A stretch of DNA of 64,000 nucleotides from Patescibacteria group bacterium (GTDB lineage: Bacteria > Patescibacteriota > Minisyncoccia > Phycocordibacterales > DATDWN01). Below are positions 4,274-62,679 of the stretch, in pieces. The notes beneath the pieces are model-generated. The model saw only the letters and a program-made list of their open reading frames with translations. It did not search any database and was not told where the DNA came from. The position numbers and the translations under genes are program-made. The stretch's first letter is position 1; every line of letters starts with the position of its first letter. The stretch lies in NCBI GenBank assembly GCA_040389125.1, contig JAZKAN010000002.1, positions 1,232 through 65,231 on the forward strand, read 5' to 3'.

Positions 4274-4443
4274 GCATTACAGAAGCATGAGCATTTTTGG
4301 AGACCCCGCAGGCCTGAAGCATGGTTCTGTCAACGACCCGCCTTTTAGGGGCGGGCTCATTGACAGATTCAGGTCGAGGAAATGCTGAAAGTCCCGCAGG
4401 GGACTTGAAGGAATCTCCAAAAATGCTCATGCTTCTGTAATGC
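4274..4443 (+). repeat. Nested-palindrome repeat, family A, copy 1
   Basis: A 30-nt outer arm GCATTACAGAAGCATGAGCATTTTTGGAGA (4274-4303) is exactly complementary to 4414-4443. The inner core CCGCAGGCCTGAAGCATGGTTCTGTCAACGAC..CTCATTGACAGATTCAGGTCGAGG is shared with 41795-41951 and 43798-43984. Confidence 0.7.
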
Positions 4444-4514: not shown

Positions 4515-4700
4515 ATGGCAAAAACATCAGTAAAAGCACGAGCAGCTAAAACCCCGAAATTCGGGACACGAGCGGTAAACCGTTGCTTTCGATGTAGTCG
4601 AAAACACGGATTCATGCGTGATTTCGGTCTCTGCAGAATCTGTTTTCGAGAGTTAGCAAACGAGGGAAAAATCCCTGGAATAAAAAAGTCCTCATGGTAG
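4515..4700 (+). CDS. rpsN: 30S ribosomal protein S14, short zinc-ribbon (type Z) form
   Basis: 61 aa with CFRCSRKHGFMRDFGLCRICFRE (CxxC...CxxC) and a C-terminal KSSW. Confidence 0.93.
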   Translation: MAKTSVKARAAKTPKFGTRAVNRCFRCSRKHGFMRDFGLCRICFRELANEGKIPGIKKSSW

Positions 4701-4777
4701 AGGCGCAAAACTAGTTGTCTCGGTAAGTCAGAGAATCTCTTCTCTCGATACTACCCAGATATAATACACAACACACA

Positions 4778-5167
4778 ATGCACGACCCAATTGGAGATAT
4801 GATTATCCGAATAAAGAACGCCTCAGACTCACGAAAAGAATCTGTGGTATTTCCGCATTCAAAACTCAAACTGGCTATTCTCGACACACTTCTAAAGGAA
4901 GGTTACGTAAAGTCATTTGGAAAGAAAGGTAAAAAGGTAGCAAAATTCATCGAGGTTGTTCTCGTATACGTAGACGGAGCACCACGAATCACTGGTGTCG
5001 AGCGTGTGTCAAAAACATCAAAGCGAATCTACACAAAGTCACAGGAGATTCGATCTGTAAAAAGTGGAATGGGATCGCTCATTCTCTCGACTCCACAGGG
5101 AATTATGACAGACAAGGCTGCTAAAAAGGCAAATGTTGGAGGCGAGGCTCTCTTTAAAATCTGGTAA
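4778..5167 (+). CDS. rpsH: 30S ribosomal protein S8
   Basis: 129 aa starting MHDPIGDMIIRIKNA and ending GGEALFKIW, a typical S8. Confidence 0.96.
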   Translation: MHDPIGDMIIRIKNASDSRKESVVFPHSKLKLAILDTLLKEGYVKSFGKKGKKVAKFIEVVLVYVDGAPRITGVERVSKTSKRIYTKSQEIRSVKSGMGSLILSTPQGIMTDKAAKKANVGGEALFKIW

Positions 5168-5177
5168 TACAAAACAT

Positions 5178-5711
5178 ATGTCACGAATCGGAAAAAAAAT
5201 AATAGCAATTCCAGAGAAAACAACAGTCACTACAGACGGTCTGAATTTTACTGTAGTTGGACCACTCGGAACACTCACAAAAAAGTTCAAGTCTGATATC
5301 GTGATCACGATAGGAGACAAAGAAATCACTCTCGAACCAAAACGCGTGACACTTGAAAACAAGGCACTGTGGGGAACATATGCATCCCACCTCATGAATA
5401 TGGTAAACGGCGTTACAACTCCATTTTCTAAAAAACTGATCATCGAGGGAATCGGATATAAATCTGAAGTCAAAGGCGACAACCTCGTCATGGCTCTCGG
5501 ATTTTCACACCCTGTTATTGTTCCGATTCCAAAGGGCTTGAAAGTAACTGCAGAGAAAAATATCATCACTGCAACAGGTATCGACAAAGAAGTCGTGGGA
5601 GAGTTTGTTGCAAACATACGATCACTCAAGAAACCAGAACCATACAAAGGTAAGGGTATTCGATACGAGGGAGAAGTGGTCAAGCGTAAACAAGGCAAGA
5701 AATCTGCATAA
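5178..5711 (+). CDS. rplF: 50S ribosomal protein L6
   Basis: The in-frame ATG at 5178 gives MSRIGKKIIAIPEKTTV, the canonical L6 N-terminus. The track start at 5133 overlaps rpsH. Confidence 0.95.
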   Translation: MSRIGKKIIAIPEKTTVTTDGLNFTVVGPLGTLTKKFKSDIVITIGDKEITLEPKRVTLENKALWGTYASHLMNMVNGVTTPFSKKLIIEGIGYKSEVKGDNLVMALGFSHPVIVPIPKGLKVTAEKNIITATGIDKEVVGEFVANIRSLKKPEPYKGKGIRYEGEVVKRKQGKKSA

Positions 5712-6690: not shown

Positions 6691-7131
6691 ATGCAAACTC
6701 ATAATCTAAAGCGAACACACGCAAATAAAAAAGCACGACAAGTAGGTCGTGGGGGAACTCGTGGAAAAACAGCAGGACGTGGAACAAAAGGACAGAACGC
6801 GCGTGCGGGTCACAAGAAACGACCAGAAATCCGAGATTTCATCAAACGTCTTCCTAAACTTCGTGGACGAGGTAAAAATATCAACACAAGTATTCAAACA
6901 AAACCAGTTGTTGTGAATTTAAAGGACCTCAAAAAATGTAAAGATGGAGATACTGTATCTCCTCGAACACTCGTAAAACATGGTATAGTGAGTAAGGTCG
7001 CTGGTGACCTTCCTCGAATCAAAATCCTGGGCAGTGGTACAGTTGAGGTGAAACTGACTGTAAAAGACTGCGAAGTCTCAGCTAGTGCAAAGGAGGCAAT
7101 CGAGAAAGCTGGAGGGACGGTTGTTCTTTAA
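6691..7131 (+). CDS. rplO: 50S ribosomal protein L15
   Basis: 146 aa with KKARQVGRGGTRGKTAGRGTKGQNARAG. It starts 7 nt after the rpsE stop, so no rpmD lies between them. Confidence 0.95.
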   Translation: MQTHNLKRTHANKKARQVGRGGTRGKTAGRGTKGQNARAGHKKRPEIRDFIKRLPKLRGRGKNINTSIQTKPVVVNLKDLKKCKDGDTVSPRTLVKHGIVSKVAGDLPRIKILGSGTVEVKLTVKDCEVSASAKEAIEKAGGTVVL

Positions 7132-7250
7132 AATCTCATTCTCCTCATGGCTTTTTAAAACACGGAGTCGCTCGGGGCACTCGCGCTCCTCGCTCTCGGG
7201 CCGTCGCCCCGCGTACGGTTTTAAAAAGTCATGAGTCAACGAGATTTTAA
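7128..7250 (+). repeat. Nested-palindrome repeat, family B, copy 1 (overlaps the rplO stop codon)
   Basis: 7132-7246 matches 25592-25706 at 111 of 115 positions by hand alignment. Ends are AATCTC...GAGATT, the stem is CTCATGRCTTTTTAAAAC, and the core is GC-rich. Confidence 0.75.
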
Positions 7251-7300
7251 AGAATACTCGCCTCTGCGCCGGGGTGGTAAAAGAAAATTCAAAAAATACA

Positions 7301-8572
7301 ATGAAAGACTTTTTTAATAAATTTACACTCGTTTTCCAGGATGCAGTTTTACGAAAACGAATTCTGTTTACACTACTCGCCCTAGTGATTTTCCGCGTAC
7401 TTGCTGTTATTCCAATACCAGGCATTGACCATGCACGACTTACACAATTTTTCGCAAGTAGTGAGTTTTTCGGACTCCTCAACATTTTCTCTGGAGGGGG
7501 ACTCGCACAGGTGTCTATTGTGCTCCTCGGTGTAGGTCCATATATTACTGGTTCTATCATCATGCAGCTTCTCACAGTTATGTCACCGAGACTCAAGGAA
7601 ATGTACCAGGAGGATGGCGAGGCTGGCCGACGCAAGTTTGCTCAGTACGGACGACTCCTTACTATTCCACTTGCACTACTTCAAGCATTTAGTTTTATTA
7701 AAATTCTTCAGAACCAACAGGTACTTGGAGCACTGTCTCCGCTCCAGCTCTCGACTGATCTTATTGTGATTACCGCTGGATCGGTCCTGCTGATGTGGAT
7801 CGGTGAGCTCATTTCTGAGTACGGTATTGGTAACGGTGTGTCCCTCATTATTTTCTCTGGTATTGTGGCGGCTTTGCCTACAACCATTAGTCAACTCATC
7901 TTTACATTTGATGCAGCCCAGCTTCCACTGTACCTCGTATTTCTCGTTGTTGCAGCAATCGTCATCGTTGCGGTGGTAGTGGTAACAGAAGCAGAGCGAC
8001 CAATTCCGGTCACATATGCAAAACAGGTTCGAGGGTCACGCGTGTACGGTGGTTCGTCAACATACCTTCCACTTCGTATGAATCAGAGTGGTGTTATGCC
8101 AATCATTTTTGGTCTTGCGATTCTCTCATTCCCACAACTCATATTGCGTTTCTTTCAGAATTCATCAGTTGATATTGTCCGCAGCATCTCGACACACGTC
8201 CTCTCGGTTCTCGCAAACTCATGGTTCTACGCGATTCTCTATTTCTTCTTTGTATTCGTGTTTACATATTTCTACACAGCGGTGACATTTGATCCAGACC
8301 AGATTTCAACCAACCTTCAGAAAAACGGCGCATTCATCCCAGGTGTTCGCCCAGGCAAACCTACTGCAGAACACATCGGACGCGTAGTCACTCGCATCAC
8401 GCTCGTCGGAGCACTCTTCCTCGGTATCATTGCGATTCTTCCGCTCATTATGCGAGGCCTCACAGGCATCACGGCAGTGTCAGTCGGGGGAACAGCACTC
8501 CTCATCGTGGTATCTGTCGTAATAGACCTAGTAAAAAAAATCGACGCTCAGGTATCAATCAGAGAATATTAA
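7301..8572 (+). CDS. secY: Preprotein translocase subunit SecY
   Basis: About 423 aa and multi-pass, with LFTLLALVIFRVLAVIPIPGID and GGTALLIVVSVVIDL. It sits between rplO and adk. The start is either ATG 7301 or GTG 7274. Confidence 0.95.
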   Translation: MKDFFNKFTLVFQDAVLRKRILFTLLALVIFRVLAVIPIPGIDHARLTQFFASSEFFGLLNIFSGGGLAQVSIVLLGVGPYITGSIIMQLLTVMSPRLKEMYQEDGEAGRRKFAQYGRLLTIPLALLQAFSFIKILQNQQVLGALSPLQLSTDLIVITAGSVLLMWIGELISEYGIGNGVSLIIFSGIVAALPTTISQLIFTFDAAQLPLYLVFLVVAAIVIVAVVVVTEAERPIPVTYAKQVRGSRVYGGSSTYLPLRMNQSGVMPIIFGLAILSFPQLILRFFQNSSVDIVRSISTHVLSVLANSWFYAILYFFFVFVFTYFYTAVTFDPDQISTNLQKNGAFIPGVRPGKPTAEHIGRVVTRITLVGALFLGIIAILPLIMRGLTGITAVSVGGTALLIVVSVVIDLVKKIDAQVSIREY

Positions 8573-9540: not shown

Positions 9541-9663
9541 CAAATCTCGTCGACCAAATGCTTTTCCGGCGCATCACGGAATGAGTGAATACATGAGTGC
9601 GAGGAAAATTTTCAGCAGAAAATTATTCCGGCGACGGAAAAGCTTTTGGGAGAAAGAGATTTG
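9541..9663. repeat. Long imperfect palindrome (singleton) with family-B-like ends
   Basis: CAAATCTC...GAGATTTG termini. The internal stem GCTTTTCCG pairs with CGGAAAAGC, and CCAAA pairs with TTTGG (5 bp). Confidence 0.6.
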
Positions 9664-12179: not shown

Positions 12180-12713
12180 TTACTTGCTGATTTGCGCCAC
12201 TAGGTGGCGGTATGCGACTGCCGCGACGGCCGAGTCATAGAGGGGGTTGTGAGTTCCGCCCTCGAACTTGCCGACGGACAACCCGTGCTTTTTCACGTAG
12301 CTGTCGACCGACGTCGGGTCTTCACCTGCTTGCTGCAGATTCCCCGATACGTCGAGCATCGGGTAAGGACCGTCCCAGTCGCCGATGACACCCTGGGCGT
12401 GCATGTCGCGGAGCAACCCTGCCTCCACGATGTACCCCATGTGCACGAGAATGTCCGCGTCGGCTTTGTTCGCGAGATAAAACTTCGCGAAGTCAGCAAG
12501 CAATCCCTTGTACGTGTCGTGCGTTACCGGCACACCAGCAAGGGTGGGGAGGACATTCTCCTTTACCCACTGTTCGGTCACTGCCGAGTCTGGCAAGCGA
12601 CCGATAAAGCGGGCGATCTCAGTGCCTTGCTCGTCGTAGACGAGCGCACCGATTGCGAAAGCCTTGCCCCAGAGACCGTTGGTCTCTGCGTCGAACGAAA
12701 ACATCTTTTTCAT
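12180..12713 (-). CDS. DEDDh-type 3'-5' exonuclease (DnaQ/RNase T-like fold)
   Basis: FSFDAETNGL is an Exo I (DxE) motif and GGTHNPLYDSAVAA is an Exo III (Hx4D) motif. ATG 12713 is preceded by GGAGACGGAGA. The gene is strongly GC-rich relative to the window. Confidence 0.8.
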   Translation of the reverse strand: MKKMFSFDAETNGLWGKAFAIGALVYDEQGTEIARFIGRLPDSAVTEQWVKENVLPTLAGVPVTHDTYKGLLADFAKFYLANKADADILVHMGYIVEAGLLRDMHAQGVIGDWDGPYPMLDVSGNLQQAGEDPTSVDSYVKKHGLSVGKFEGGTHNPLYDSAVAAVAYRHLVAQISK

Positions 12714-12990
12714 TTTTTCTCCGTCTCCTAGTCGGAATAATATCAACATTTATTTTGTAGATATTAACATTCTTCCGGCCATGAAACATTTGAAACTTTT
12801 TCGTCCTTTCGGACTCATCAGTCAGGCTTTTCCATTTCTGGACATCCTGAGAAAGTTGGAGCGTCACATACGTAATCGCCCCATGTGGAACGATAGTTGG
12901 ATCGTTCCACCATTTCACTTCTTCCGCCAACTCGGAATGTATAACATGACATTTCTTTATGAGTCGTAGTCATTGACGACTTCGCCGATG

Positions 12991-25091: not shown

Positions 25092-25192
25092 TGAGAAACT
25101 CAAATATAGCAAAAAGGAAGGCTATCGAAACGATAATCTTCCTTGTGCTGTAAGGCTATTTGAGGAATTTGTTACCTCAAATACTCTAGATG

Positions 25193-25578
25193 TGGAGATG
25201 GCGACATCGAAGTCGCATGCATAGAGAGAATTGAAGCGGGTCTACAGCGCGTAGTTTGTTTTAGTGTTTTAAATCATACTGCTCGGAACAAACAAAATAC
25301 AGTATGATCGAGTCATCTTTTTTTCGAAACATACTCGAGACTAAATATGTTTCTAACCTGCGTTTTATATCAATCAACTTCCCGTAGCGGGTGTGAGGGA
25401 AGCGACCGTCGTTTAGGCGTTAGCGTAAGCGAAGGAGAAATCATTTACAGTGAAGTAAGGAGATTTAACCTTTGTAACTAAGTTGTTTACACTTAAGTTT
25501 TTCGTGCTGTTTTAGGAGGACACGATACTCCGCGTTGCGCGAATCAATTGGCAAACTATGTCAAAACCTGTCATCCCC
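25193..25578 (-). ncRNA. ssrA: tmRNA (SsrA)
   Basis: The minus-strand 5' end is GGGGATGACAGGTTTTGACA. The 3' end is GCGAC-TTCGAT-GTCGC, then CATCTCC, then A. This gives a 7-bp acceptor stem with a G3:U70 pair. The in-frame tag candidate ends NDFSFAYANA then TAA. smpB is adjacent. Confidence 0.85.
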
Positions 25579-25586
25579 GATGTTAA

Positions 25587-25710
25587 TATACAATCTCTTT
25601 CTCCTCATGACTTTTTAAAACACGGAGTCGCTCGGGGCACTCGCGCTCCTCGCTCTCGGGCCGTCGCCCTGTGTACGGTTTTAAAAAGTCATGAGTCAAC
25701 GAGATTGTAT
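25587..25710 (+). repeat. Nested-palindrome repeat, family B, copy 2
   Basis: 25592-25706 matches 7132-7246 at 111 of 115 positions. It lies between the ssrA 5' end and the smpB stop. Confidence 0.75.
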
Positions 25711-28869: not shown

Positions 28870-28942
28870 GCGCGTGTAGCTCAGTTGGTAGAGCGTTCGT
28901 CTTATACACGAATGGCCGGGGGTCCGAATCCCTCCACGCGCA
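28870..28942 (+). tRNA. tRNA-Ile, anticodon UAU
   Basis: Hand-folded cloverleaf. Acceptor GCGCGTG/CACGCGC, D arm GCTC-AGTTGGTA-GAGC, anticodon arm TTCGT-CTTATAC-ACGAA (TAT at 28913-28915), T arm GGGGG-TCCGAAT-CCCTC. No encoded CCA. Confidence 0.8.
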
Positions 28943-29103
28943 CAAAAAATTATATTTACAATGAAAAGAGAAGACAAAATTTTGATAATATCGATCGGTG
29001 TTCTAATTCTTGTATACATCCTTATACAATTTGTCCGTGTGAACTGGAACTGGTATCAAAATGAAAAGGCGATGAGGGCTGAATCCTCATTACAAATTTT
29101 TTC

Positions 29104-39598: not shown

Positions 39599-39638
39599 GA
39601 ATTTAAATTAGTATATTAAATTATATCTTGTTCATATG

Positions 39639-39725
39639 CGGAGGATGTGAGATTTGAACTCACGGTCCAGTTTCCCGGACGGCGGTTTAGTAAACCGCTG
39701 GTTTAAACCACTCACCCAATCCTCC
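39639..39725 (-). tRNA. Class II tRNA (Ser-like: long variable arm, G73) with apparent anticodon ACU
   Basis: Acceptor GGAGGAT/ATCCTCC. Anticodon arm GCGGT-TTACTAA-ACCGC. Variable arm GTCCGG-GAAA-CTGGAC. T arm GTGAG-TTCAAAT-CTCAC. Discriminator G. Confidence 0.75.
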
Positions 39726-41000: not shown

Positions 41001-41046
41001 GAATATATTGTAGCAGAAGTATTTACAAATTTGTACGGTTTTTTTG

Positions 41047-41135
41047 CGGAGACGGGCGGATTCGAACCGCCGGTGCCGTTTAAAGGGCACACCTCTTTAG
41101 CAAAGAGGCACATTAGACCGCTCTGACACGTCTCC
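41047..41135 (-). tRNA. tRNA-Ser, anticodon GCU
   Basis: Acceptor GGAGACG/CGTCTCC. Anticodon arm CCTCT-TTGCTAA-AGAGG. Long variable arm. T arm GGCGG-TTCGAAT-CCGCC. Discriminator G. Confidence 0.85.
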
Positions 41136-41794: not shown

Positions 41795-41951
41795 CCCGCC
41801 CATTAATACATTTTGAAACATCCGCAAGCCTCGAGCACGGTCCTGTCAACGACTCAAGTATTCTCTTGAGCTCATTGACAGGTCGAGGCTGAGGACCGAA
41901 CGAACTTTTCGCCGGAAAAGTGAGTGTTTTCAAAATGTATTAATGGGTGGG
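41795..41951 (+). repeat. Nested-palindrome repeat, family A, copy 2
   Basis: The outer arm CCCGCCCATTAATACATTTTGAAACA pairs with 41925-41951. The core is CCGCAAGCCTCGAGCACGGTCCTGTCAACGAC..CTCATTGACAGGTCGAGG, with a second hairpin CTTTTCGCCGGAAAAG. Confidence 0.7.
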
Positions 41952-42678: not shown

Positions 42679-43797
42679 ATGTTTGATTTTCTTTCCAACC
42701 TATTCAAAAAGCCGAACCAAAGTGTTTTAGGTATTGATATTGGTTCGTCTGCGATAAAAATAGTGCAACTCAGGCGCAAGGGCGGTCGCGCAATACTCGA
42801 AACATACGGTGAACTTTCTCTCGGTCCATATGCAAACAAAAGTATCGGTGAGAGCACTAACCTATCCGAGGAGAAAATAATCGAGGCACTCAACAATCTC
42901 ATAAAGGAAAAAGAAGTAAATGTTACATCTCGCGAATGTGGTATCGCTATTCCATTTTCAGCATCACTCATGTCTGTTATCGAGTTGCCCCCGGTCAATA
43001 TGAAACAAATTGCGAGCATCGTTCCACTAGAGGCACGCAAATATATTCCCGTACCGATTTCCGAAGTGTCACTTGATTGGTCTGTTATTCCGCCCGACAG
43101 AAATCCTGGTGTAGAGCAGAAATTGGATATGGATGGCAAACCAATTCCACCAAAAACAGAAGTGCTGATTGTGGCAATACATAATGATACGATCACACGA
43201 TACAAAAATATTGTGGCGGCAACTGGACTGTCTGCGTCATTTTTTGAAATAGAGATTTTTAGCACACTGCGCTCGATTCTCGATCAGGAAGTCACTCCAA
43301 TGCTTATCGTAGACATGGGTGCGACAAGTACAAAAGTCTATATAGTCGAGCGGGGAATTCTCCGTGCGTCACACATGATCAATCGTGGTGGTCAGAGTAT
43401 TACGACAGTGTTATCCAAATCGTTGGGTCTGTCTGTTGATGATGCGGAAATAATGAAACGTGACAAAGGAATTCAGGGAACAGCAAACGGTATTGGAGTC
43501 AAAGATGTGGTGACTGTCACTCTTGATTTTATTTTCAGCGAGGCAAACCACGTCGTGCTCGCGTATCAAAAGAAATACAACAAAAATGTGAGCAAGGTGA
43601 TCCTCGTAGGAGGGGGAAGTGCACTCAAGGGCGTTGTGGATGTTGCCAAGCGGAACTTTCAGACAGAGGTAATAGGCGGTGACCCGTTTTCAAAGGTGGT
43701 TGCTCCGGCGTTTCTCGAAAACATACTCAAGGAGACCGGTCCGGAGTTTGCTGTGGCAGTGGGAGTTGCACTACGCAAGTTGCAAGAATTAGGTTGA
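42679..43797 (+). CDS. pilM: Type IV pilus assembly protein PilM (actin-like ATPase)
   Basis: 372 aa with VLGIDIGSSAIKIVQL and VDMGATSTKVYIV. It heads the pilus cluster. Confidence 0.85.
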   Translation: MFDFLSNLFKKPNQSVLGIDIGSSAIKIVQLRRKGGRAILETYGELSLGPYANKSIGESTNLSEEKIIEALNNLIKEKEVNVTSRECGIAIPFSASLMSVIELPPVNMKQIASIVPLEARKYIPVPISEVSLDWSVIPPDRNPGVEQKLDMDGKPIPPKTEVLIVAIHNDTITRYKNIVAATGLSASFFEIEIFSTLRSILDQEVTPMLIVDMGATSTKVYIVERGILRASHMINRGGQSITTVLSKSLGLSVDDAEIMKRDKGIQGTANGIGVKDVVTVTLDFIFSEANHVVLAYQKKYNKNVSKVILVGGGSALKGVVDVAKRNFQTEVIGGDPFSKVVAPAFLENILKETGPEFAVAVGVALRKLQELG

Positions 43798-43984
43798 GAA
43801 AACTTTTCAAACTCCTCTCCCCAAACCCGTTTCAGAGACGCTCGCTTTTCCTGCGAAAAGCTCTCTCGGTCCTCGACCTGAATCCGTCAATGAGCCCAAG
43901 TATTCTCTTGGGTCGTTGACGGAACCATGCTTCAGGTCTGCGGATGCTCTGAAACCGGTTCGGGTCGACGAGCTTGAAAAGTTT
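43798..43984 (-). repeat. Nested-palindrome repeat, family A, copy 3 (inverted orientation)
   Basis: The reverse complement carries CCGCAGACCTGAAGCATGGTTCCGTCAACGAC..CTCATTGACGGATTCAGGTCGAGG and CTTTTCGCAGGAAAAG. It begins at the base after the pilM stop codon. Confidence 0.7.
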
Positions 43985-44089
43985 AATTTTCAAAACAAAC
44001 CTCATTTTTGACATGATTCAAAAATACTCATATTTAAAGCCGTATTTTCACTACTCAAAAAAGAAAATGCAATTTTGCATGAAATTCGC

Positions 44090-44118
44090 TTGACTTTGTA
44101 TGCACACCGTGCTATGCT
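44090..44118 (+). promoter_or_regulatory. Sigma70-like promoter of the GC-rich unit
   Basis: TTGACT (44090-44095), 17-nt spacer, TATGCT (44113-44118). Confidence 0.5.
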
Positions 44119-44124
44119 TTACTC

Positions 44125-44499
44125 ATAATCGTTCATTAGAAGTATTGTAGTTGGGATGCAGTTGAGTGGGTTTGGAGGACTTGAGCCTTCGCCCACAATG
44201 GAGAATACCATGCACAACCGCGGATCCACGGCGCACGGCGCCTACGTCAACCATCATAGCGCCCATTTGAGCCATGTCCCGATGATCGTCACCACCGCGC
44301 GCGCCAACCATCGCAAGTAACCCGGCGCCGGCGGCCGGCGAGTGCGAGCGACCACACGGTCGCTGCGCTTGCCAGGCGAGAATGAGAAGTATTCCAGTCC
44401 GATCGCGGGCGCCAGCTTTGGGAAATATCGAAAGATAAAATCCCTAACGCTACGCCCGCAGGCCCCAGCCCCCGACCACAAATCGGGGGTGTTTTTTTG
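44125..44499 (+). other. GC-rich transcription unit of unknown function (short His-rich ORF or ncRNA), promoter to terminator
   Basis: This is visibly the most GC-rich stretch of the window. The ORF 44198-44320 encodes MENTMHNRGSTAHGAYVNHHSAHLSHVPMIVTTARANHRK with strongly G/C-biased third codon positions. The terminator is CCCCCGA..TCGGGGG followed by T7 (44469-44499). Confidence 0.3.
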
Positions 44500-44515
44500 T
44501 ATAAAAACTATTAAG

Positions 44516-44733
44516 TGAATAAATCCAGAATAATATAATTTTGGAAACTCCGGAAACGATTAGGAAACAACGACGAATGAAGAGGAGTCCGAAGCACTGT
44601 TTGAGCACAGGTACTCCTGGCGAGTTTGCGAGAGGACTCTGGAATGAGGACGATTGTTTCCTTGATCGTTGAGGTAGAGGAAAAAGTCACCAGACTTTTA
44701 TCCGTTTTTCAAAATTATATTATTCTGGATTCA
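44516..44733 (+). repeat. Nested-palindrome repeat, family C, copy 1
   Basis: The outer arm AATCCAGAATAATATAATTTTG pairs with CAAAATTATATTATTCTGGATT. The core CCGAAGCACTGTTTGAGCACAGGTACTCCTGGCGAGTTTGCGAGAGG is shared, in reverse complement, with 58384-58594. Confidence 0.7.
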
Positions 44734-44827
44734 TGAACCACTTTGTCCACAGCTCCCACTGTGTTTTTTATTTCCATATTCTTGTATACTTACTCTAGTA
44801 TTTGTGCGCGAATTCACACACTAACTC

Positions 44828-45433
44828 ATGGAACCAAAATTTCAAACATCGTTCATTCCAAAAAATTCAGGCACGATGGGATCGGGCAATATCATCGAGG
44901 CTGTTCACACCACAAACCTATTTACTGTTATTAGTTCGGTTGTATTTATCGCTACACTTCTCGCATCTGGCGGGGCATTTGCATACAAAAAATATTTAAC
45001 TGACCAAGTAAACAAAGCCAGCAGTGAACTCGGTAGCGCCACAGAAGCATTTGCACCAGATAAAATTCAAGAACTTGTAGACGCGAGTTCGCGTTTGGCC
45101 ACAACAAAACACCTACTCGTAAATCATGTGACCGTTTCAGAAGTTTTTAGTTTATTGCAGTCGCTTACTGTGTCCAAAGTTAGATTTACCAGTTTTGAAT
45201 TTTCAATAAAGGAAAATCACATGAGTGTCGCAATGGATGGTGAGTCGCAGACATACAATGCACTCGCCAACCAATCTGATGCGTTTTCACAGAATTCATT
45301 TATTATTGCCCCATTATTTTCAGATGTGAATCTGACAACCCAGGGAAATATCGGTTTCAAGTTTGTCGCGACGCTTAATCCCGATCTCGTATCCTACAAA
45401 AAAGCGATTGAAGCACTAAAATCAAACCCATAA
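44828..45433 (+). CDS. pilN: PilN-like pilus assembly protein
   Basis: 201 aa with a single TM helix, then a coiled region and an alpha/beta C-terminal domain. It lies between pilM and the pilO-like gene. Confidence 0.6.
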   Translation: MEPKFQTSFIPKNSGTMGSGNIIEAVHTTNLFTVISSVVFIATLLASGGAFAYKKYLTDQVNKASSELGSATEAFAPDKIQELVDASSRLATTKHLLVNHVTVSEVFSLLQSLTVSKVRFTSFEFSIKENHMSVAMDGESQTYNALANQSDAFSQNSFIIAPLFSDVNLTTQGNIGFKFVATLNPDLVSYKKAIEALKSNP

Positions 45434-45434
45434 T

Positions 45435-45983
45435 ATGAAAGCAATTCTTACCATTGTCATAGTTACCATCGGGATCGGAATGTATATTCTGTATATTAGT
45501 CCTACAATAGGTGACATACGGTCGTTGCAACAACAAAAAGATGAATACACTCGCACACTTGCTACATCCAAAGAACTCAAAATTCGTCGAGATACGCTCA
45601 TGGATGCATACAACAGTATTGCTCCGGCGGATTTGGATCGTTTGAATAAAATTATTCCAGTTACATTTGATCAAGTTCGTTTTGCAAAAGACATGTACGC
45701 TATTTCACAGCTTGATTCTATTTCAATAAAAAATATTAAGATTTCAACTGCACCAATAGATTCAGCGGGGAATATTGGGACAGCGGCAACAAACCCAGTA
45801 AGTTATAAAACTATTTCCGTTTCCTACACTGCCTCGGGGACGTATGACCAGTTTATTCGATATCTCCGGGACGTAGAACAGGATCTGCAACTTATGGATG
45901 TGACTTCGATAGTGGTCAAACCGTCCGACAAGAGTAATGTGTATGACTACGCAATGACACTTACAACTTATTCACTACGATAA
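45435..45983 (+). CDS. pilO: PilO-like pilus assembly protein
   Basis: 182 aa with an N-terminal TM helix, a coiled segment (SLQQQKDEYTRTLATSKELKIRRD) and a C-terminal ferredoxin-like region. Confidence 0.6.
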   Translation: MKAILTIVIVTIGIGMYILYISPTIGDIRSLQQQKDEYTRTLATSKELKIRRDTLMDAYNSIAPADLDRLNKIIPVTFDQVRFAKDMYAISQLDSISIKNIKISTAPIDSAGNIGTAATNPVSYKTISVSYTASGTYDQFIRYLRDVEQDLQLMDVTSIVVKPSDKSNVYDYAMTLTTYSLR

Positions 45984-45984
45984 T

Positions 45985-46374
45985 ATGGAATTTTTCACAA
46001 AAAACAAAAAAGTAATTATTGGCATCATCATTCTTATTGGTTTGATTTATTTTGGATACGCAACCGTTTTTTCAACTTCTTCGTCTGATATTGCCGAGGG
46101 GGATACACCAGCCGTTTTGCAGGACAGTGGACCAGCTAAAGAAATATTAAATGCAGTAGATAAATTCAAAAATGTATCAATAGACCCAGAAATATTTACA
46201 TCGGATTTGTTTAAAAATCTTAAAGATTTTACAAGTATTGTTACACCTGAACAACGAGGCAGATCAAATCCTTTTGCTGTGTTTGGTGCAATAAATAGCA
46301 CAACTGGTGCAGAAAACACTCCATTTCAAACTACGCCTGTACAATCTACAACCCGTTCCACTCGTAATATATAA
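45985..46374 (+). CDS. Pilus-cluster membrane-anchored protein, function unknown
   Basis: 129-aa ORF starting 1 nt after the upstream stop, with an N-terminal TM helix. Confidence 0.55.
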   Translation: MEFFTKNKKVIIGIIILIGLIYFGYATVFSTSSSDIAEGDTPAVLQDSGPAKEILNAVDKFKNVSIDPEIFTSDLFKNLKDFTSIVTPEQRGRSNPFAVFGAINSTTGAENTPFQTTPVQSTTRSTRNI

Positions 46375-46386
46375 CTGTCATATAGA

Positions 46387-48120
46387 ATGGATATAATCAA
46401 TTTACTCATTGAAAAAGGTTTACTAACTCCTGAACAGGTTACTGCGGTCAAGAAAGAAAGGGCACAAACAGGTATTACAGCAGAACAAGCCTTGCTTAAA
46501 CACGGTATCTCCCCAGAAGTCATTTTGAATGCAAAGGGAGAGTATTTTGAGGTGCCTGTACGTAGTCTAGAGGGGGTAGATGTTCCCGGGAAAGTGCTTG
46601 AGTATATTCCAGAGGAGTCCGCAAGACATTATAAATTTATTCCACTTGCGATTGTAGATGGCGCGCTCGAAATAGGTATGGTAGATCCAGATGATATTGA
46701 GGCACACGATGCACTCAACTTCATTTCTTCTAAAATTCAGATGCCGTTCAAAACCTTTATCATCACAGAAGAGGATTTTGAGAAAACAGTGGCGTTGTAC
46801 AAGGGTTTGTCGGGGGAAGTGTCAAAGGCACTTTCGGAACTCGAGAATGAACTCAAGATCGAGACATCATCTGTGGATATGGAAAAAAATAAGACAGATG
46901 CGGAAAATGATAAAGCGGACGGTGAAGCGACTAAAATTGCAGAGGATGCTCCGGTGACTAAAATTGTTGCGACAATACTCAGATATGCAACTGACGGCAA
47001 TGCATCCGATATTCACATTGAGCCATGGCGTGAAAATATTCGTGTACGTTTTCGTGTTGATGGTGTGATGAATACAAGTCTCGTACTGCCACTCAAAGTG
47101 CACTCGGCAGTTGTTGCGCGTATTAAAATCCTTTGTAATATGCGACTCGATGAAAAAAGAAAGCCCCAAGATGGTCGTTTTACCGCACGTATCGAGGGTA
47201 GAAAAATCGATTTTCGTGTTTCAACATTTCCAACATTTTTTGGTGAGAAAGTCGTGATGCGACTTCTCGACCAGGAAAAAGGTGTAAAAAAACTAGATCA
47301 GCTCGGTATTAGCAAGAAAAATTTGGAACTTATAAAAAAAGCAATTGATAAACCATACGGACTAATTCTTATTTCTGGACCGACCGGCTCTGGAAAAACG
47401 ACAACTCTGTATTCAATGCTAAACGAAGTTGATCGTGAGCATCAAAACGTACTTTCACTCGAAGATCCTATCGAATACAACATCGAGGGAATGTCTCAGT
47501 CGCAGGTTAAACCTGAAATAGGGTACACGTTTGGAGAGGGACTCCGAACAACCCTTCGTCAGGACCCTGACGTAATCATGGTGGGAGAGATTCGAGACAA
47601 AGAAACTGCGCAGTTGGCTATCCAAGCGGCTCTGACTGGTCACCTTGTGCTATCCACTATCCACACGAACTCGGCAGTCGGTGTGATTCCGCGTCTTATT
47701 GATATGGGAATTGATCCGTATCTTATTGCGCCGACTCTGATTCTGGCAATCGCTCAACGACTGGTGCTTGGACTCTGTCCTGGTGGGGGTGAGGCGTTAC
47801 CTATCGAAGGTAGTCTAAAAGCAATGATAGATGATCAGTTTAGTGACTTGCCTCAAAAATATATTGATGAACAGGAGTTTACAGACAAGGTCTATAAAGC
47901 AGTTCCAACTCCAGAATGTCCAAATGGTACTCGCGGACGAATTGCGGTGATGGAAGTTATGGAAATGGACAAGGAAATCGAGAGTGTGATTTTGAAAAGT
48001 GCAACAGAATTGGATATTACAAAAGTTGCACGTGCAAAAGGAATGCTCACAATGAAAGAAGACGCGATTTTGAAAGCAATGCAGAGAGTTATTCCTTTTG
48101 AAGAAGTGAGTACATTGTAG
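46387..48120 (+). CDS. pilB: Type IV pilus assembly ATPase PilB (GspE family)
   Basis: 577 aa with an N-terminal MshEN-like domain, Walker A GPTGSGKTTT, Asp and His boxes, and Walker B IMVGEIRD. Confidence 0.93.
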   Translation: MDIINLLIEKGLLTPEQVTAVKKERAQTGITAEQALLKHGISPEVILNAKGEYFEVPVRSLEGVDVPGKVLEYIPEESARHYKFIPLAIVDGALEIGMVDPDDIEAHDALNFISSKIQMPFKTFIITEEDFEKTVALYKGLSGEVSKALSELENELKIETSSVDMEKNKTDAENDKADGEATKIAEDAPVTKIVATILRYATDGNASDIHIEPWRENIRVRFRVDGVMNTSLVLPLKVHSAVVARIKILCNMRLDEKRKPQDGRFTARIEGRKIDFRVSTFPTFFGEKVVMRLLDQEKGVKKLDQLGISKKNLELIKKAIDKPYGLILISGPTGSGKTTTLYSMLNEVDREHQNVLSLEDPIEYNIEGMSQSQVKPEIGYTFGEGLRTTLRQDPDVIMVGEIRDKETAQLAIQAALTGHLVLSTIHTNSAVGVIPRLIDMGIDPYLIAPTLILAIAQRLVLGLCPGGGEALPIEGSLKAMIDDQFSDLPQKYIDEQEFTDKVYKAVPTPECPNGTRGRIAVMEVMEMDKEIESVILKSATELDITKVARAKGMLTMKEDAILKAMQRVIPFEEVSTL

Positions 48121-51037: not shown

Positions 51038-51493
51038 ATGAAAAAGAGTCTTTCACGAGGTTTCACACTCATTGAACTTTTGGTTGTTATCGCTATCATC
51101 GGTATCTTGTCATCAGTTGTTCTCGCATCACTCAACACAGCACGAACAAAGGGTGCAGATGCAGCTATAAAGAGCAACCTAAACAATACACGTGCTCAGG
51201 CAGAACTTATATATGACCCAGCAGGTTCATATGCAACTGTTTGTGCTGATACAACAACAATTCAGAAAGCTATGGCAGCGGCTCATGTTGCTGCAGGTCT
51301 CACTGGTGCAGATACATACGCTTTTGCTACAGCAGGAACTTCTAACACTGTTGCTTGTCAGTCACAGGCTGGTTCATGGGCTATTGAAGCGCCTCTAAAG
51401 GGAGGTGGATACTGGTGTGTAGATAGTACAGGATTTTCTGGAGCACGAGTAAGTGTTCTTGCAGCATCTGCAGGTGCTTGCCCAGCTACATGA
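51038..51493 (+). CDS. Type IV pilin (prepilin N-terminal cleavage/methylation motif)
   Basis: The N-terminus MKKSLSRG/FTLIELLVVIAIIGILSSVVLASL is a class III signal. A C-terminal Cys pair is present. Confidence 0.88.
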   Translation: MKKSLSRGFTLIELLVVIAIIGILSSVVLASLNTARTKGADAAIKSNLNNTRAQAELIYDPAGSYATVCADTTTIQKAMAAAHVAAGLTGADTYAFATAGTSNTVACQSQAGSWAIEAPLKGGGYWCVDSTGFSGARVSVLAASAGACPAT

Positions 51494-51623: not shown

Positions 51624-52046
51624 ATGCATCATTCGCGCACACATGGATTTACACTCATTGAACTTTTGGTAGTTATCTCAATCATTGGGGTATTGAGTTC
51701 TATTGTCCTTGCTTCACTAACAAATGCACGAAGCAAAGGAGCGGATTCTGCTATAAAATCTAATTTAAATAATATACGTTCGCAGGCAGAATTGTCCTAT
51801 GATAACGGTGCAAATGGATATCAAGGTGCATGTACATTTGGAAATAATACTGATTTGTACAATGCTGCAAAAGCCGCTGCAGGGTGTGGAGGAGCAACGT
51901 GTGGGGCGTGTGCAAACAGTACTGGTGCGTGGTCAGTGTGGGTTCAACTCAAAACGGTTCCTGCAGATGCCTGGTGTGTGGATTACAAGGGGAGCGCTAA
52001 AACAGTCAGTCCAAAACCTGCTGCCCCTATAACTTCCTGCCCCTAG
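51624..52046 (+). CDS. Type IV pilin, second paralogue
   Basis: The N-terminus is MHHSRTHG/FTLIELLVVISIIGVLSSIVLASL. Confidence 0.88.
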   Translation: MHHSRTHGFTLIELLVVISIIGVLSSIVLASLTNARSKGADSAIKSNLNNIRSQAELSYDNGANGYQGACTFGNNTDLYNAAKAAAGCGGATCGACANSTGAWSVWVQLKTVPADAWCVDYKGSAKTVSPKPAAPITSCP

Positions 52047-58383: not shown

Positions 58384-58594
58384 AAAGGAAATAAATATAT
58401 TTTCAGAGCACGCATAAAATTGTACTCAATTTTTGCTCTCGCTCAGAGATCAAGAAAATAATACACTCAATGCGTAGCCCTCTCGCAAACTCGCCAGGAT
58501 TACCTGTGCTCAAACAGTGCTTCGGGCTTACTTCATTTTCGCTGTTATTTTCTAATCTCTTCCGCAGTCTCAAAAAATTATATTTATTTTCTTT
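58384..58594 (-). repeat. Nested-palindrome repeat, family C, copy 2 (inverted)
   Basis: The reverse complement carries CCGAAGCACTGTTTGAGCACAGGTAATCCTGGCGAGTTTGCGAGAGG plus homologous arms. It starts 3 nt after the ligA stop. Confidence 0.7.
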
Positions 58595-61432: not shown

Positions 61433-61776
61433 TTGCGGGACCAGGACTTGCACCTGGGTCTGAAGGTTATGCTTTCCACTATAGTTTTCACTACTTCCAA
61501 ATTTCAAAAATTTGTAATTTGTGGTCTGGACTATACCATTTCCTTTTTCAAACGAGTTTGAAGGTAAGGAATTCACCATCTAGTCTCTACACATTTATCA
61601 GTTGATTTTAGTCATCTGAATTTAGCTCGGAATTGTCTTTCTCTACTATACTATAGTAAAGAGAGGATTTCTCCGAATTTGGCGAATGCAATCCTAAAAA
61701 TTTCTTTTTAGGTGGCCCATACAGGATGCAAGATCCAATACTTGAGCCTTCCGAGATACTGCTTCTCTATCCCGCT
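61433..61776 (-). tRNA. Initiator-like tRNA(CAU) interrupted by a 273-nt group I intron in the anticodon loop
   Basis: The 5' exon (61776-61745) is AGCGGGA-TA-GAGA-AGCAGTA-TCTC-G-GAAGG-CT. The 3' exon (61471-61433) is CATAA-CCTTC-AGAC-CCAGG-TGCAAGT-CCTGG-TCCCGCA-A. The spliced loop is CTCATAA. Features are A11:U24 and a 1:72 mismatch. Confidence 0.75.
61472..61744 (-). mobile_element. Group I self-splicing intron (IC3/Azoarcus-like core)
   Basis: The minus strand contains GTGTAGAGACTAGATGG (plus-strand 61576-61592) and CAAATTCGGAGAAATCC (61665-61681). As recalled, these closely match the Azoarcus tRNA-Ile intron core segments. U precedes the 5' splice site and G ends the intron. Confidence 0.75.
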
Positions 61777-62568: not shown

Positions 62569-62639
62569 GTCGGTGTAGTTCAATGGTAGAACGGAGGACT
62601 CATAAGCCTTAAACCGTGGTCCGATTCCACGCATCGACA
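62569..62639 (+). tRNA. tRNA(CAU), probably elongator Met
   Basis: Acceptor GTCGGTG/CATCGAC. D arm GTTC-AATGGTA-GAAC. Anticodon loop CTCATAA. T arm CGTGG-TCCGATT-CCACG. Discriminator A. Confidence 0.8.
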
Positions 62640-62679
62640 CAAAATTTGTTTCTCGTGTGTATTCGTGCTAATCTAAATC

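Follow-up and report, generated by a model that had tools for sequence, protein, structure and literature searches.

What is the GC-rich block that separates the type IV pilus genes pilM and pilN in this Patescibacteria genome: a gene, an RNA or the remains of a gene? The window analysed here is the whole stretch of 64,000 nucleotides (nt) taken from contig JAZKAN010000002.1. A preliminary description of it had offered two answers for the promoter-to-terminator unit at 44090-44499, namely a relic of a gene from a high-GC donor or a structured non-coding RNA (ncRNA). This either/or was too simple because the unit has two parts, a coding-like 5' part (folding z-score +1.35) and an RNA-like 3' part (z-score -4.9). 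The RNA half of the proposal fits the 3' part, and the relic is poorly supported. The reading that we favour, tentatively and from sequence comparison, is that the unit may be a lineage-restricted, fast-evolving gene for a peptide of 36-40 residues with a conserved, structured 3' module.

The unit was compared with its counterpart in the sister species L090 (NCBI assembly GCA_040384245.1), which was found by a PilM protein search and is nearer than any GTDB representative, and with the pilM-pilN gap of a further relative, L083 (PilM 79 % identical). The parts of the unit and of its promoter module are as follows.

43996-44124, plus strand: conserved AT-rich regulatory/promoter module, from the promoter scan and a three-species alignment of the window, L090 and L083 (78 % mean column identity)
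44008-44036, plus strand: upstream promoter-like element TTGACA-17-TATTTA, about 80 nt 5' of the unit promoter
44090-44118, plus strand: unit promoter TTGACT-17-TATGCT with an upstream TG (extended -10), from the promoter scan
44125-44209, plus strand: 5' leader, its presumed start lying about 7 nt past the -10 hexamer
44198-44320, plus strand: small open reading frame (ORF), 40 codons from the ATG at 44198 or 36 codons from the ATG at 44210
44321-44340, plus strand: 20-nt G/C-only run immediately 3' of the stop codon, the sole run of at least 14 G/C in the window
44334-44377, plus strand: hairpin H1, 19 bp with one bulged G and the 4-nt loop ACAC (core z-score -3.9)
44380-44394, plus strand: hairpin H2, GAAUG-AGAAG-UAUUC, present in the minimum free energy (MFE) and centroid structures, its 5' arm alone aligning with L090
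44405-44459, plus strand: nested hairpin H3 with a GAAA tetraloop cap (z-score -5.1)
44468-44499, plus strand: intrinsic terminator, an 8-bp stem with 6 G-C pairs followed by a U run, from the terminator scan

As judged from its promoter and terminator and their conservation, the GC-rich block appears to be a real, self-contained transcription unit. In the three-species alignment the -35 hexamer, the extended -10 and GTG.TA of the promoter module are kept. The -35 hexamer of the upstream promoter-like element is likewise conserved in L090 and L083, along with much of the AT-rich sequence around it, and the terminator is kept in L090 with one loop change. The promoter and the strong terminator of the preliminary description were thus both recovered, the former with the additional TG. 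On the minus strand of the unit the promoter and terminator scan gave only a weak promoter-like site and no terminator. The leader is not unusually structured (z-score -0.6) and not alignable with L090; a hairpin in it, GUGGG..CCCAC, encloses a GGAGG. The unit had also been called the most GC-rich stretch of the window, which is correct at 150 nt (0.693) and at 300 nt (0.63) and fails at 370 nt, where it ranks second (0.592 vs 0.603 for 12185-12554, inside a gene). Elsewhere in the window, a 189-aa ORF on the minus strand (12180-12749; G+C content at third codon positions, GC3, 0.72) is the sole long one nearing the composition of the small ORF, and it may have been horizontally acquired.

The peptide predicted from the small ORF is His-rich (7 of the 40 codons), basic and not hydrophobic; MHNRGSTAHGAYVNHHSAHLSHVPMIVTTARANHRK is the form given as an alternative to the one of 40 residues, and a longer start at 44156 gives a 54-aa ORF (44156-44320, ORF54). 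Both sizes, 40 and 54 codons, agree with those first reported, as does the count of 33 out of 40 sense codons with G or C in third position (GC3 0.80 if the stop codon is included). The GC content by codon position is 0.54/0.44/0.80 (permutation p 0.0016; p 0.02 when all 123-nt windows of the unit were scanned for periodicity). C at third positions (C3) reaches 0.57 and GC3 0.82, compared with 0.18 ± 0.06 and 0.38 ± 0.09 for the host, as calculated from 54 long ORFs of the window. The second, in-frame ATG at 44210 has a GGAG 6 nt upstream (sequence read directly). The ORF folds worse than 183 of 200 shuffles, which is the source of the positive z-score given above. The same frame remains open for about 65 codons past the TAA (64 had been counted before); periodicity fades beyond this stop and none was found in the downstream frame.

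The 147 nt that follow the stop codon (44321-44467) are strongly structured and give the z-score of -4.9. A perfect 10-nt palindrome, CCGGCGCCGG (44322-44331), lies in the G/C run and could be a protein-binding or dimerisation site. The two GC hairpins described earlier, GCGACC-ACAC-GGTCGC and GGGA..TCCC, are present and fold. When H1 was compared with its L090 counterpart, 14 of 19 pairs were invariant, three one-sided transitions stayed paired and two pairs became A.C, so that 94.7 % of pair cells were kept with no double compensatory change; two such sequences would neither prove nor disprove constraint at the RNA level. A segment of about 69 nt, 44398-44466, comprising the 3' end of H2 and H3, is absent from L090, and nothing from about 44398 to 44466 has an L090 counterpart. 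Homology of H3 to the nested GNRA-capped terminators found in the relatives L006, L010 and L011 was considered and rejected, the alignment being unconvincing. A coding function of the 3' region, in the +1 frame or on the minus strand, was also rejected: most substitutions would be non-synonymous in any frame and L090 has a stop 9 codons past the TAA (by eye). A search with RNAduplex for antisense targets among translation-initiation regions returned long duplexes and was uninformative.

The comparison with L090 separates these parts. Protein identities between L090 and the window are 92 % for PilB, 88 % for PilM, 77 % for the ComF-like protein, 64 % for PilN and 50 % for PilO, with a DNA identity of about 75 % in conserved genes; an identical copy of the L090 PilM occurs in a Logan contig of run SRR26324622, which holds the window too. 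The gap of L090 has, in order, repeat A (the flanking palindromic repeats are treated below), the AT-rich module, TTGACT-16-TAAAGT, a 39-codon ORF, GTAACC, GGCGCCGGCGGCCGGCGAG, H1, a linker, the terminator, repeat C and the pilN promoter region. Its ORF stops at the same TAA as that of the window. When composition-matched random segments were used, the chance of an ATG-initiated ORF with 36 or more codons up to the conserved TAA was 0.049 in the window and 0.023 in L090, or about 1e-3 jointly. The L090 ORF also shows codon-position bias (GC 0.38/0.50/0.68, p 0.0125; C3 0.49) and the same two-part split in folding (ORF z-score +1.53, 3' region -3.07); the third-position C and G+C contents of both ORFs fall well beyond the range of host genes. 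Past the TAA its frame closes after 8 sense codons, and it contains a single His. From the promoter spacer through the last ORF codons the two species are not alignable (p 0.82 for the peptides, p 0.19 for the DNA). By contrast, 44292-44388 is 82 % identical in L090, above the roughly 75 % of neighbouring coding DNA; the first 70 nt of the 3' domain are kept with 88 % mean column identity over 85 aligned columns, and GGCGCCGGCGGCCGGCGAG of the G/C run is identical at 19 of 19 positions, the G/C-only run of L090 being 17 nt long. At this species distance unconstrained DNA should be unalignable; the fact that the promoter module, the terminator and the G/C run plus H1 have been conserved therefore requires an explanation, as does the open, periodic, GC3-rich frame that persists in both species.

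Under the favoured reading, the sigma-70-type promoter with its extended -10 (44090-44118) would start an RNA of approximately 375 nt, the start site being a prediction. Its unstructured, C-rich 5' half with the ORF of 36-40 codons would be translated into a small basic His-rich peptide. The 3' module would end transcription before repeat C and pilN, may shield the short mRNA from 3' exonucleases and would be the part under nucleotide-level constraint. As a best guess, the peptide may assist or modulate either the pilus machinery or interactions with other cells or with phages. The guess rests on the relatives, in which exactly this position is taken by other small GC-rich genes with expression signals of their own; these encode tail-anchored membrane peptides or are target genes of diversity-generating retroelements (DGRs) (see below).

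Several observations weigh against a peptide gene. The ATG at 44198 has no usable Shine-Dalgarno sequence (SD); the statement that the frame lacks a convincing one is correct for this codon and not for the ATG at 44210. In L090 the GGAG lies 11 nt upstream of the ATG. The ORFs of the two species are not alignable, and therefore neither the ratio of non-synonymous to synonymous substitution rates nor conservation provides evidence for translation; the conserved part of the unit is the non-coding 3' module and not the ORF. In L083 the longest ATG ORF noted in the corresponding unit has 17 codons. The gene callers of public collections called no gene at the mini-ORF. A word-indexed search of 5.8 billion proteins with the ORF54 frame gave no candidate, and exhaustive phmmer against 1.84 billion representatives gave 0 matches at E-values up to 0.001, a 40-residue fragment having little power for matching remote homologues. 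Six degenerate peptide patterns across the unit were found in neither IMG/VR nor the JGI metagenome contigs.

The conservation pattern and the nearly ORF-less unit of L083 both favour the main rival, in which the unit is a small structured ncRNA, a trans- or cis-acting riboregulator whose G/C run, H1 and terminator are functional and whose ORF is incidental. We regard this as possible, if rather unlikely. The 3' domain is highly structured (z-score -4.9) and is the best-conserved piece of the unit. In L083 the promoter module is 76 % identical over 76 nt and its promoter, TTGACA-17-TATGAT, drives a GC-rich structured RNA (about 220 nt, z-score -2.9) that is unrelated to that of the window, ends in a terminator of its own and has no more than the 17-codon ATG ORF; periodicity comparable to that of the window ORF was found neither over its whole length nor in any 120-nt window (0.09-0.14). 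Long GC-rich intergenic regions of AT-rich genomes are, moreover, enriched for structured ncRNAs (PMC6429828, PMC11109978), and the window unit resembles such candidates as a long GC-rich intergenic region in an AT-rich genome with 3' hairpins below shuffles. It differs from them in being present in two genomes only, in having no covariation support (in H1, three one-sided changes and two A.C pairs across two sequences) and in its unstructured, coding-like 5' half. The 5' 200 nt fold less than shuffles, and the periodicity and the ORF sharing its stop in both species would not be expected of an ncRNA. A covariance model of the 3' module matched the window and L090 alone in 0.92 Mb of related loci.

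Known RNA families do not account for the unit. The preliminary description could not match it to RNase P, signal recognition particle RNA, 6S RNA or a known riboswitch, and no Rfam family was found for it here, whether among these or among transfer-messenger RNA, HEARO, OLE, GOLLD, ROOL and others: a search of the whole window had no match in 43700-44900 at the gathering threshold, and a permissive search (E-values up to 10) of two sub-ranges gave, for the 386-nt stretch, chance-level matches only (at most 16 bits inside the unit). The same search of the L083 gap gave only chance matches. Elsewhere in the window Rfam identified a transfer-messenger RNA (tmRNA), five tRNAs and a group I intron. 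The intron lies at 61505-61735 on the minus strand, above the Rfam gathering score (64 bits) and about 0.8 kb from a tRNA-Met gene (62569-62640). ARAGORN placed a tRNA-Ile with anticodon UAU at 28870-28943 and a tRNA-Ser with anticodon ACU at 39638-39725, both unusual, and a second tRNA-Ser (GCU) lies at 41046-41135.

The locus is like the bacterial small-ORF genes and dual-function small RNAs in being a short, independent intergenic unit from promoter to terminator, whose ORF has about 40 codons and whose 3' end is structured and closes with an intrinsic terminator. It is unlike them in that its peptide belongs to no family and cannot be aligned with its sister counterpart, that its ORF has a GC3 of 0.82 against 0.38 in the host, and that such constraint as is visible falls on the 3' hairpin module and not on the peptide.

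The features that bound the unit are the following.

42679-43797, plus strand: pilM, type IV pilus assembly ATPase-like protein (PF11104 PilM_2 and PF14450 FtsA on an identical product; NCBI name PilM)
43798-43995, strand not assigned: repeat A, a family A palindrome of the miniature inverted-repeat transposable element (MITE) or repetitive extragenic palindromic (REP) kind, with further copies at 41819-41927 and 4306-4380
about 44519-44734, strand not assigned: repeat C, a family C palindrome in its long form, with a second copy at 58394-58584
44741-44827, plus strand: pilN-proximal conserved region, the probable pilN promoter, with an identity to L090 of about 90 % (estimated by eye on the alignment)
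44828-45433, plus strand: pilN, the right border of the gap, from homologues (one named 'putative pilN') and from synteny with PilO and the T2SSE ATPase

Downstream of pilN follow a PilO-like gene, a small ORF and the T2SSE ATPase gene. The host pilM, pilN and pilO have no obvious SD. The organism is, as far as protein comparison indicates, a Zambryskibacteria-like member of the Patescibacteria, or candidate phyla radiation (CPR): its PilM is at most 74 % identical to GTDB species representatives, mostly labelled Zambryskibacteria, Paceibacterota or Parcubacteria.

The gap between pilM and pilN, put at about 1 kb before, measures 1030 nt. It does not exceed 150 nt in 54 of the 74 relatives for which it could be measured, and its median over the 74 is about 90 nt. 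In order, the gap contains repeat A, the unit and repeat C, as the preliminary description had it. Its junctions are not the artefact of a single assembly, because an independent Logan contig of run SRR26324622 spans 43927-47481 with 0 mismatches; the short-read assemblies of that run break within repeat A. The preliminary term 'composite insertion' is accurate as to the parts, all of which are present, and not as to a recent event, because repeat A, the flanks of the unit and repeat C have the same order in L090. Regions of the TACTATAAT type, related to 44741-44827, sit upstream of pilN in L083 and L086.

Repeats A and C were called MITE/REP-like because both are long imperfect palindromes (z-scores -10.6, for a single long hairpin, and -8.1); with dispersed copies (three of A and two of C in the window) and common termini, the two families fit this description. 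Family C has a long form (about 215 nt) and a short form (about 110 nt), which share the termini TTTTGGAAACT ... TATCCGTG.TC.AAAA, and is widespread; in many species its copies lie immediately upstream of pilN, among them L005, L006, L010, L011, L017 and L090. A copy of repeat A is found at the same site in L090, with about 78 % identity over repeat A and the promoter module together. Related A/C copies are found in L017, L022, L090 and others. When 80 syntenic loci were searched with blastn, nhmmer and tblastx, only these two repeats matched; comparison of pilM-pilN spacers thus yielded shared repeats in general and a shared layout in L090.

Other repeats were observed in the window. A 121-nt direct repeat (7129-7249 and 25589-25709, 95 % identity) has its second copy abutting the tmRNA gene (25190-25578, minus strand), and two copies of a 163-nt direct repeat (51054-51216 and 51640-51802, 72 % identity) are spaced 586 nt apart. 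Another dispersed repeat, at 9558-9643, is 89.5 % identical to L083 3814-3899 and is also found in L022 and L019. Its L083 match lies within 'gene175', a 175-aa JGI call in the L083 gap that we took as spurious because it runs across a promoter, a terminator and a dispersed repeat and lacks codon periodicity.

In more distant relatives, where the gap is enlarged, it holds different cargo. Cassettes with promoter, SD, ORF and terminator were found in L006, L010, L011, L016, L033, L045 and L064, and complete DGRs in four relatives.

L006 2615-3131; L010 7334-7537; L011 7170-7301; L016 6380-6565; L033 about 7300-7530: tail-anchored peptide cassettes
L017 3774-6967; L038 7122-9878; L014 7113-10409; L054 7137-10134: complete DGRs

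The first five cassettes contain GC-rich ORFs of 43-75 aa with a C-terminal transmembrane helix, and in L006, L010 and L011 each ORF is preceded by its own TTGACT-type promoter and a GGAGG SD and followed by a nested GNRA-capped terminator. Pfam gave no significant match for the small tail-anchored ORFs. The cargo of L045 and L064 consists of soluble proteins of 77-85 residues, and that of L032 of an uncharacterised 241-residue ORF. Each DGR comprises an RVT_1 reverse transcriptase (RT), a GC-rich target gene and, on the opposite strand, a bAvd-like gene. The RTs of the four relatives are 62-64 % identical to that of L017, in which a 129-nt variable region (VR, 4694-4822) and the template repeat (TR, 5169-5297) are 90 % identical. 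The target genes have GC3 values of 0.70-0.76, the RT and avd genes are AT-rich, and the target proteins differ among species and have no Pfam match. The gap thus recurrently holds small GC-rich genes and DGRs, and the spacer is therefore a recurrent landing or retention site. The window unit agrees with the L006, L010, L011, L016 and L033 cassettes in position, TTGACT-type promoter, GC richness and own terminator followed by a family C repeat and pilN. These encode tail-anchored peptides with strong GGAGG SDs and short untranslated regions, whereas its ORF is not hydrophobic and it has a leader of 72-84 nt, a structured 3' region of 150 nt and no sequence similarity to them. Descent of the unit from a tail-anchored peptide gene or a DGR target gene, as a relic, was rejected since no similarity was found in any frame.

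The position upstream of pilN also raises the possibility of a ribosome-dependent attenuator, in which translation of the His-rich ORF as a leader peptide would set read-through towards pilN via the hairpins and terminator. Like the his and trp leaders, the unit places a small ORF rich in one amino acid (7 His among 40 codons) ahead of hairpins and an intrinsic terminator, with an operon gene further downstream; the ORF stops 14 nt before the first paired base of H1, and CGACCA(C/U)A, common to H1 and the terminator, permits a 5-bp alternative pairing (by eye). We consider the attenuator very unlikely. In contrast to those leaders, the unit yielded no convincing anti-terminator pairing, and neither the MFE nor the centroid structure gave an alternative fold. 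The His codons are scattered and not kept in L090, whose ORF has one. In the window 100-150 nt separate the stop codon from the terminator. Between the terminator and pilN come a palindromic repeat and, beyond it, a promoter region of pilN that is conserved separately; pilN apparently has a promoter of its own there.

The DGRs in the same gap suggest another explanation, that the unit is the footprint of cassette exchange or of a retroelement, with the G/C run and the 4-nt-loop hairpin as a DNA or RNA target and the segment upstream repeatedly rewritten or replaced. DGR targets require a variable region, a (GC)14 initiation of mutagenic homing (IMH) element and a hairpin with a 4-nt loop (PMC3240598); the hairpin has a GC-rich stem of 7-10 bp and a loop of consensus GRNA, derived from phage DGRs (PMC3240598). 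The window and L090 have the same order of elements: an unalignable segment between conserved flanks, a G/C-only run of at least 14 nt (20 nt in the window and 17 nt in L090, for an element of about 14 bp) and a GC-rich stem with a 4-nt loop. Homologous DGRs occupy the same gap in four relatives. The loop is, however, ACAC or AUAC and not GRNA, and the stem has 19 bp, to be read against a consensus that is phage-derived. No RT, Avd or target protein was found in the 64-kb window by tblastn with the L017 and L038 proteins, nor was a second copy of the unit that could serve as template repeat. Unlike in a DGR target, the two variable segments are unequal in length and their differences involve every base, not adenines alone, and the whole ORF has only 36-40 codons. 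The DGRs of the relatives use no (GC)14 run after the VR at this locus, and ordinary fast evolution suffices at a divergence at which PilO and PilN are 50 % and 64 % identical. Rewriting of this kind is thus highly unlikely for the unit. A broader version, which we hold to be quite unlikely, would make the pilM-pilN spacer of Zambryskibacteria a dedicated variable-gene slot, bracketed by a conserved promoter and by the G/C run with its hairpin, in which a hairpin-targeted mechanism would rewrite or exchange a GC-rich mini-gene again and again; this mechanism may be a DGR-related retroelement or recombinational.

A gene acquired from a high-GC donor and now decaying into a relic or pseudogene fragment is highly improbable, because under neutral evolution the frame would have been lost and the composition would have moved towards 41 % GC. 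The GC3 of 0.80-0.82 is codon-like and unlike the host, and the frame is open for about 65 codons past the TAA; that part, however, has no periodicity, consists of hairpins and terminator, and closes after 8 sense codons in L090. The unit is precisely bounded by a conserved promoter and a conserved terminator, and the ORF has stayed GC-rich in both species, whose DNA is only about 75 % identical. Neither the syntenic loci nor L090 carry the segment within a longer intact gene. The phmmer and word searches and the viral and metagenome peptide patterns described above gave no homologue, within the little power that 40 residues afford, and neither did Pfam on four frames of the unit. An exact-product look-up found ORF54 and an antisense 75-aa ORF unrecorded, and distant-mode DNA searches of phages and plasmids gave nothing. 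A pattern of the conserved promoter module had 0 matches in metagenome contigs, a collection evidently without even L083, and a pattern of the G/C run with H1 had 0 matches in viral contigs. Two further candidates were dismissed: a type I toxin-antitoxin locus (the peptide has no hydrophobic helix, and the minus strand has a weak promoter-like site and no terminator) and an integron cassette (H1 is an imperfect palindrome without flanking RYYYAAC/GTTRRRY core sites, and the unit is single, with its own promoter and no array).

The unit is thus a lineage-restricted orphan of the ordinary kind, a small gene or a small RNA, and neither a known RNA family nor a recognisable pseudogene. Two of its features call for an explanation: the maintenance in two AT-rich species of a C- and GC-rich unstructured ORF with an unalignable sequence, and the invariance, at 19 of 19 positions, of the G/C run beside that ORF. 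CPR bacteria are thought to use the type IV pilus for attachment and DNA uptake. The recurrent GC-rich genes, MITE-like palindromes and DGRs in the spacer suggest variable accessory functions coupled to this pilus. Were the spacer indeed a variable-gene slot, the unit would encode a hypervariable small peptide linked to the pilus machinery of epibiotic bacteria. The unit is also an example of the small proteins or RNAs that standard annotation of CPR genomes misses.

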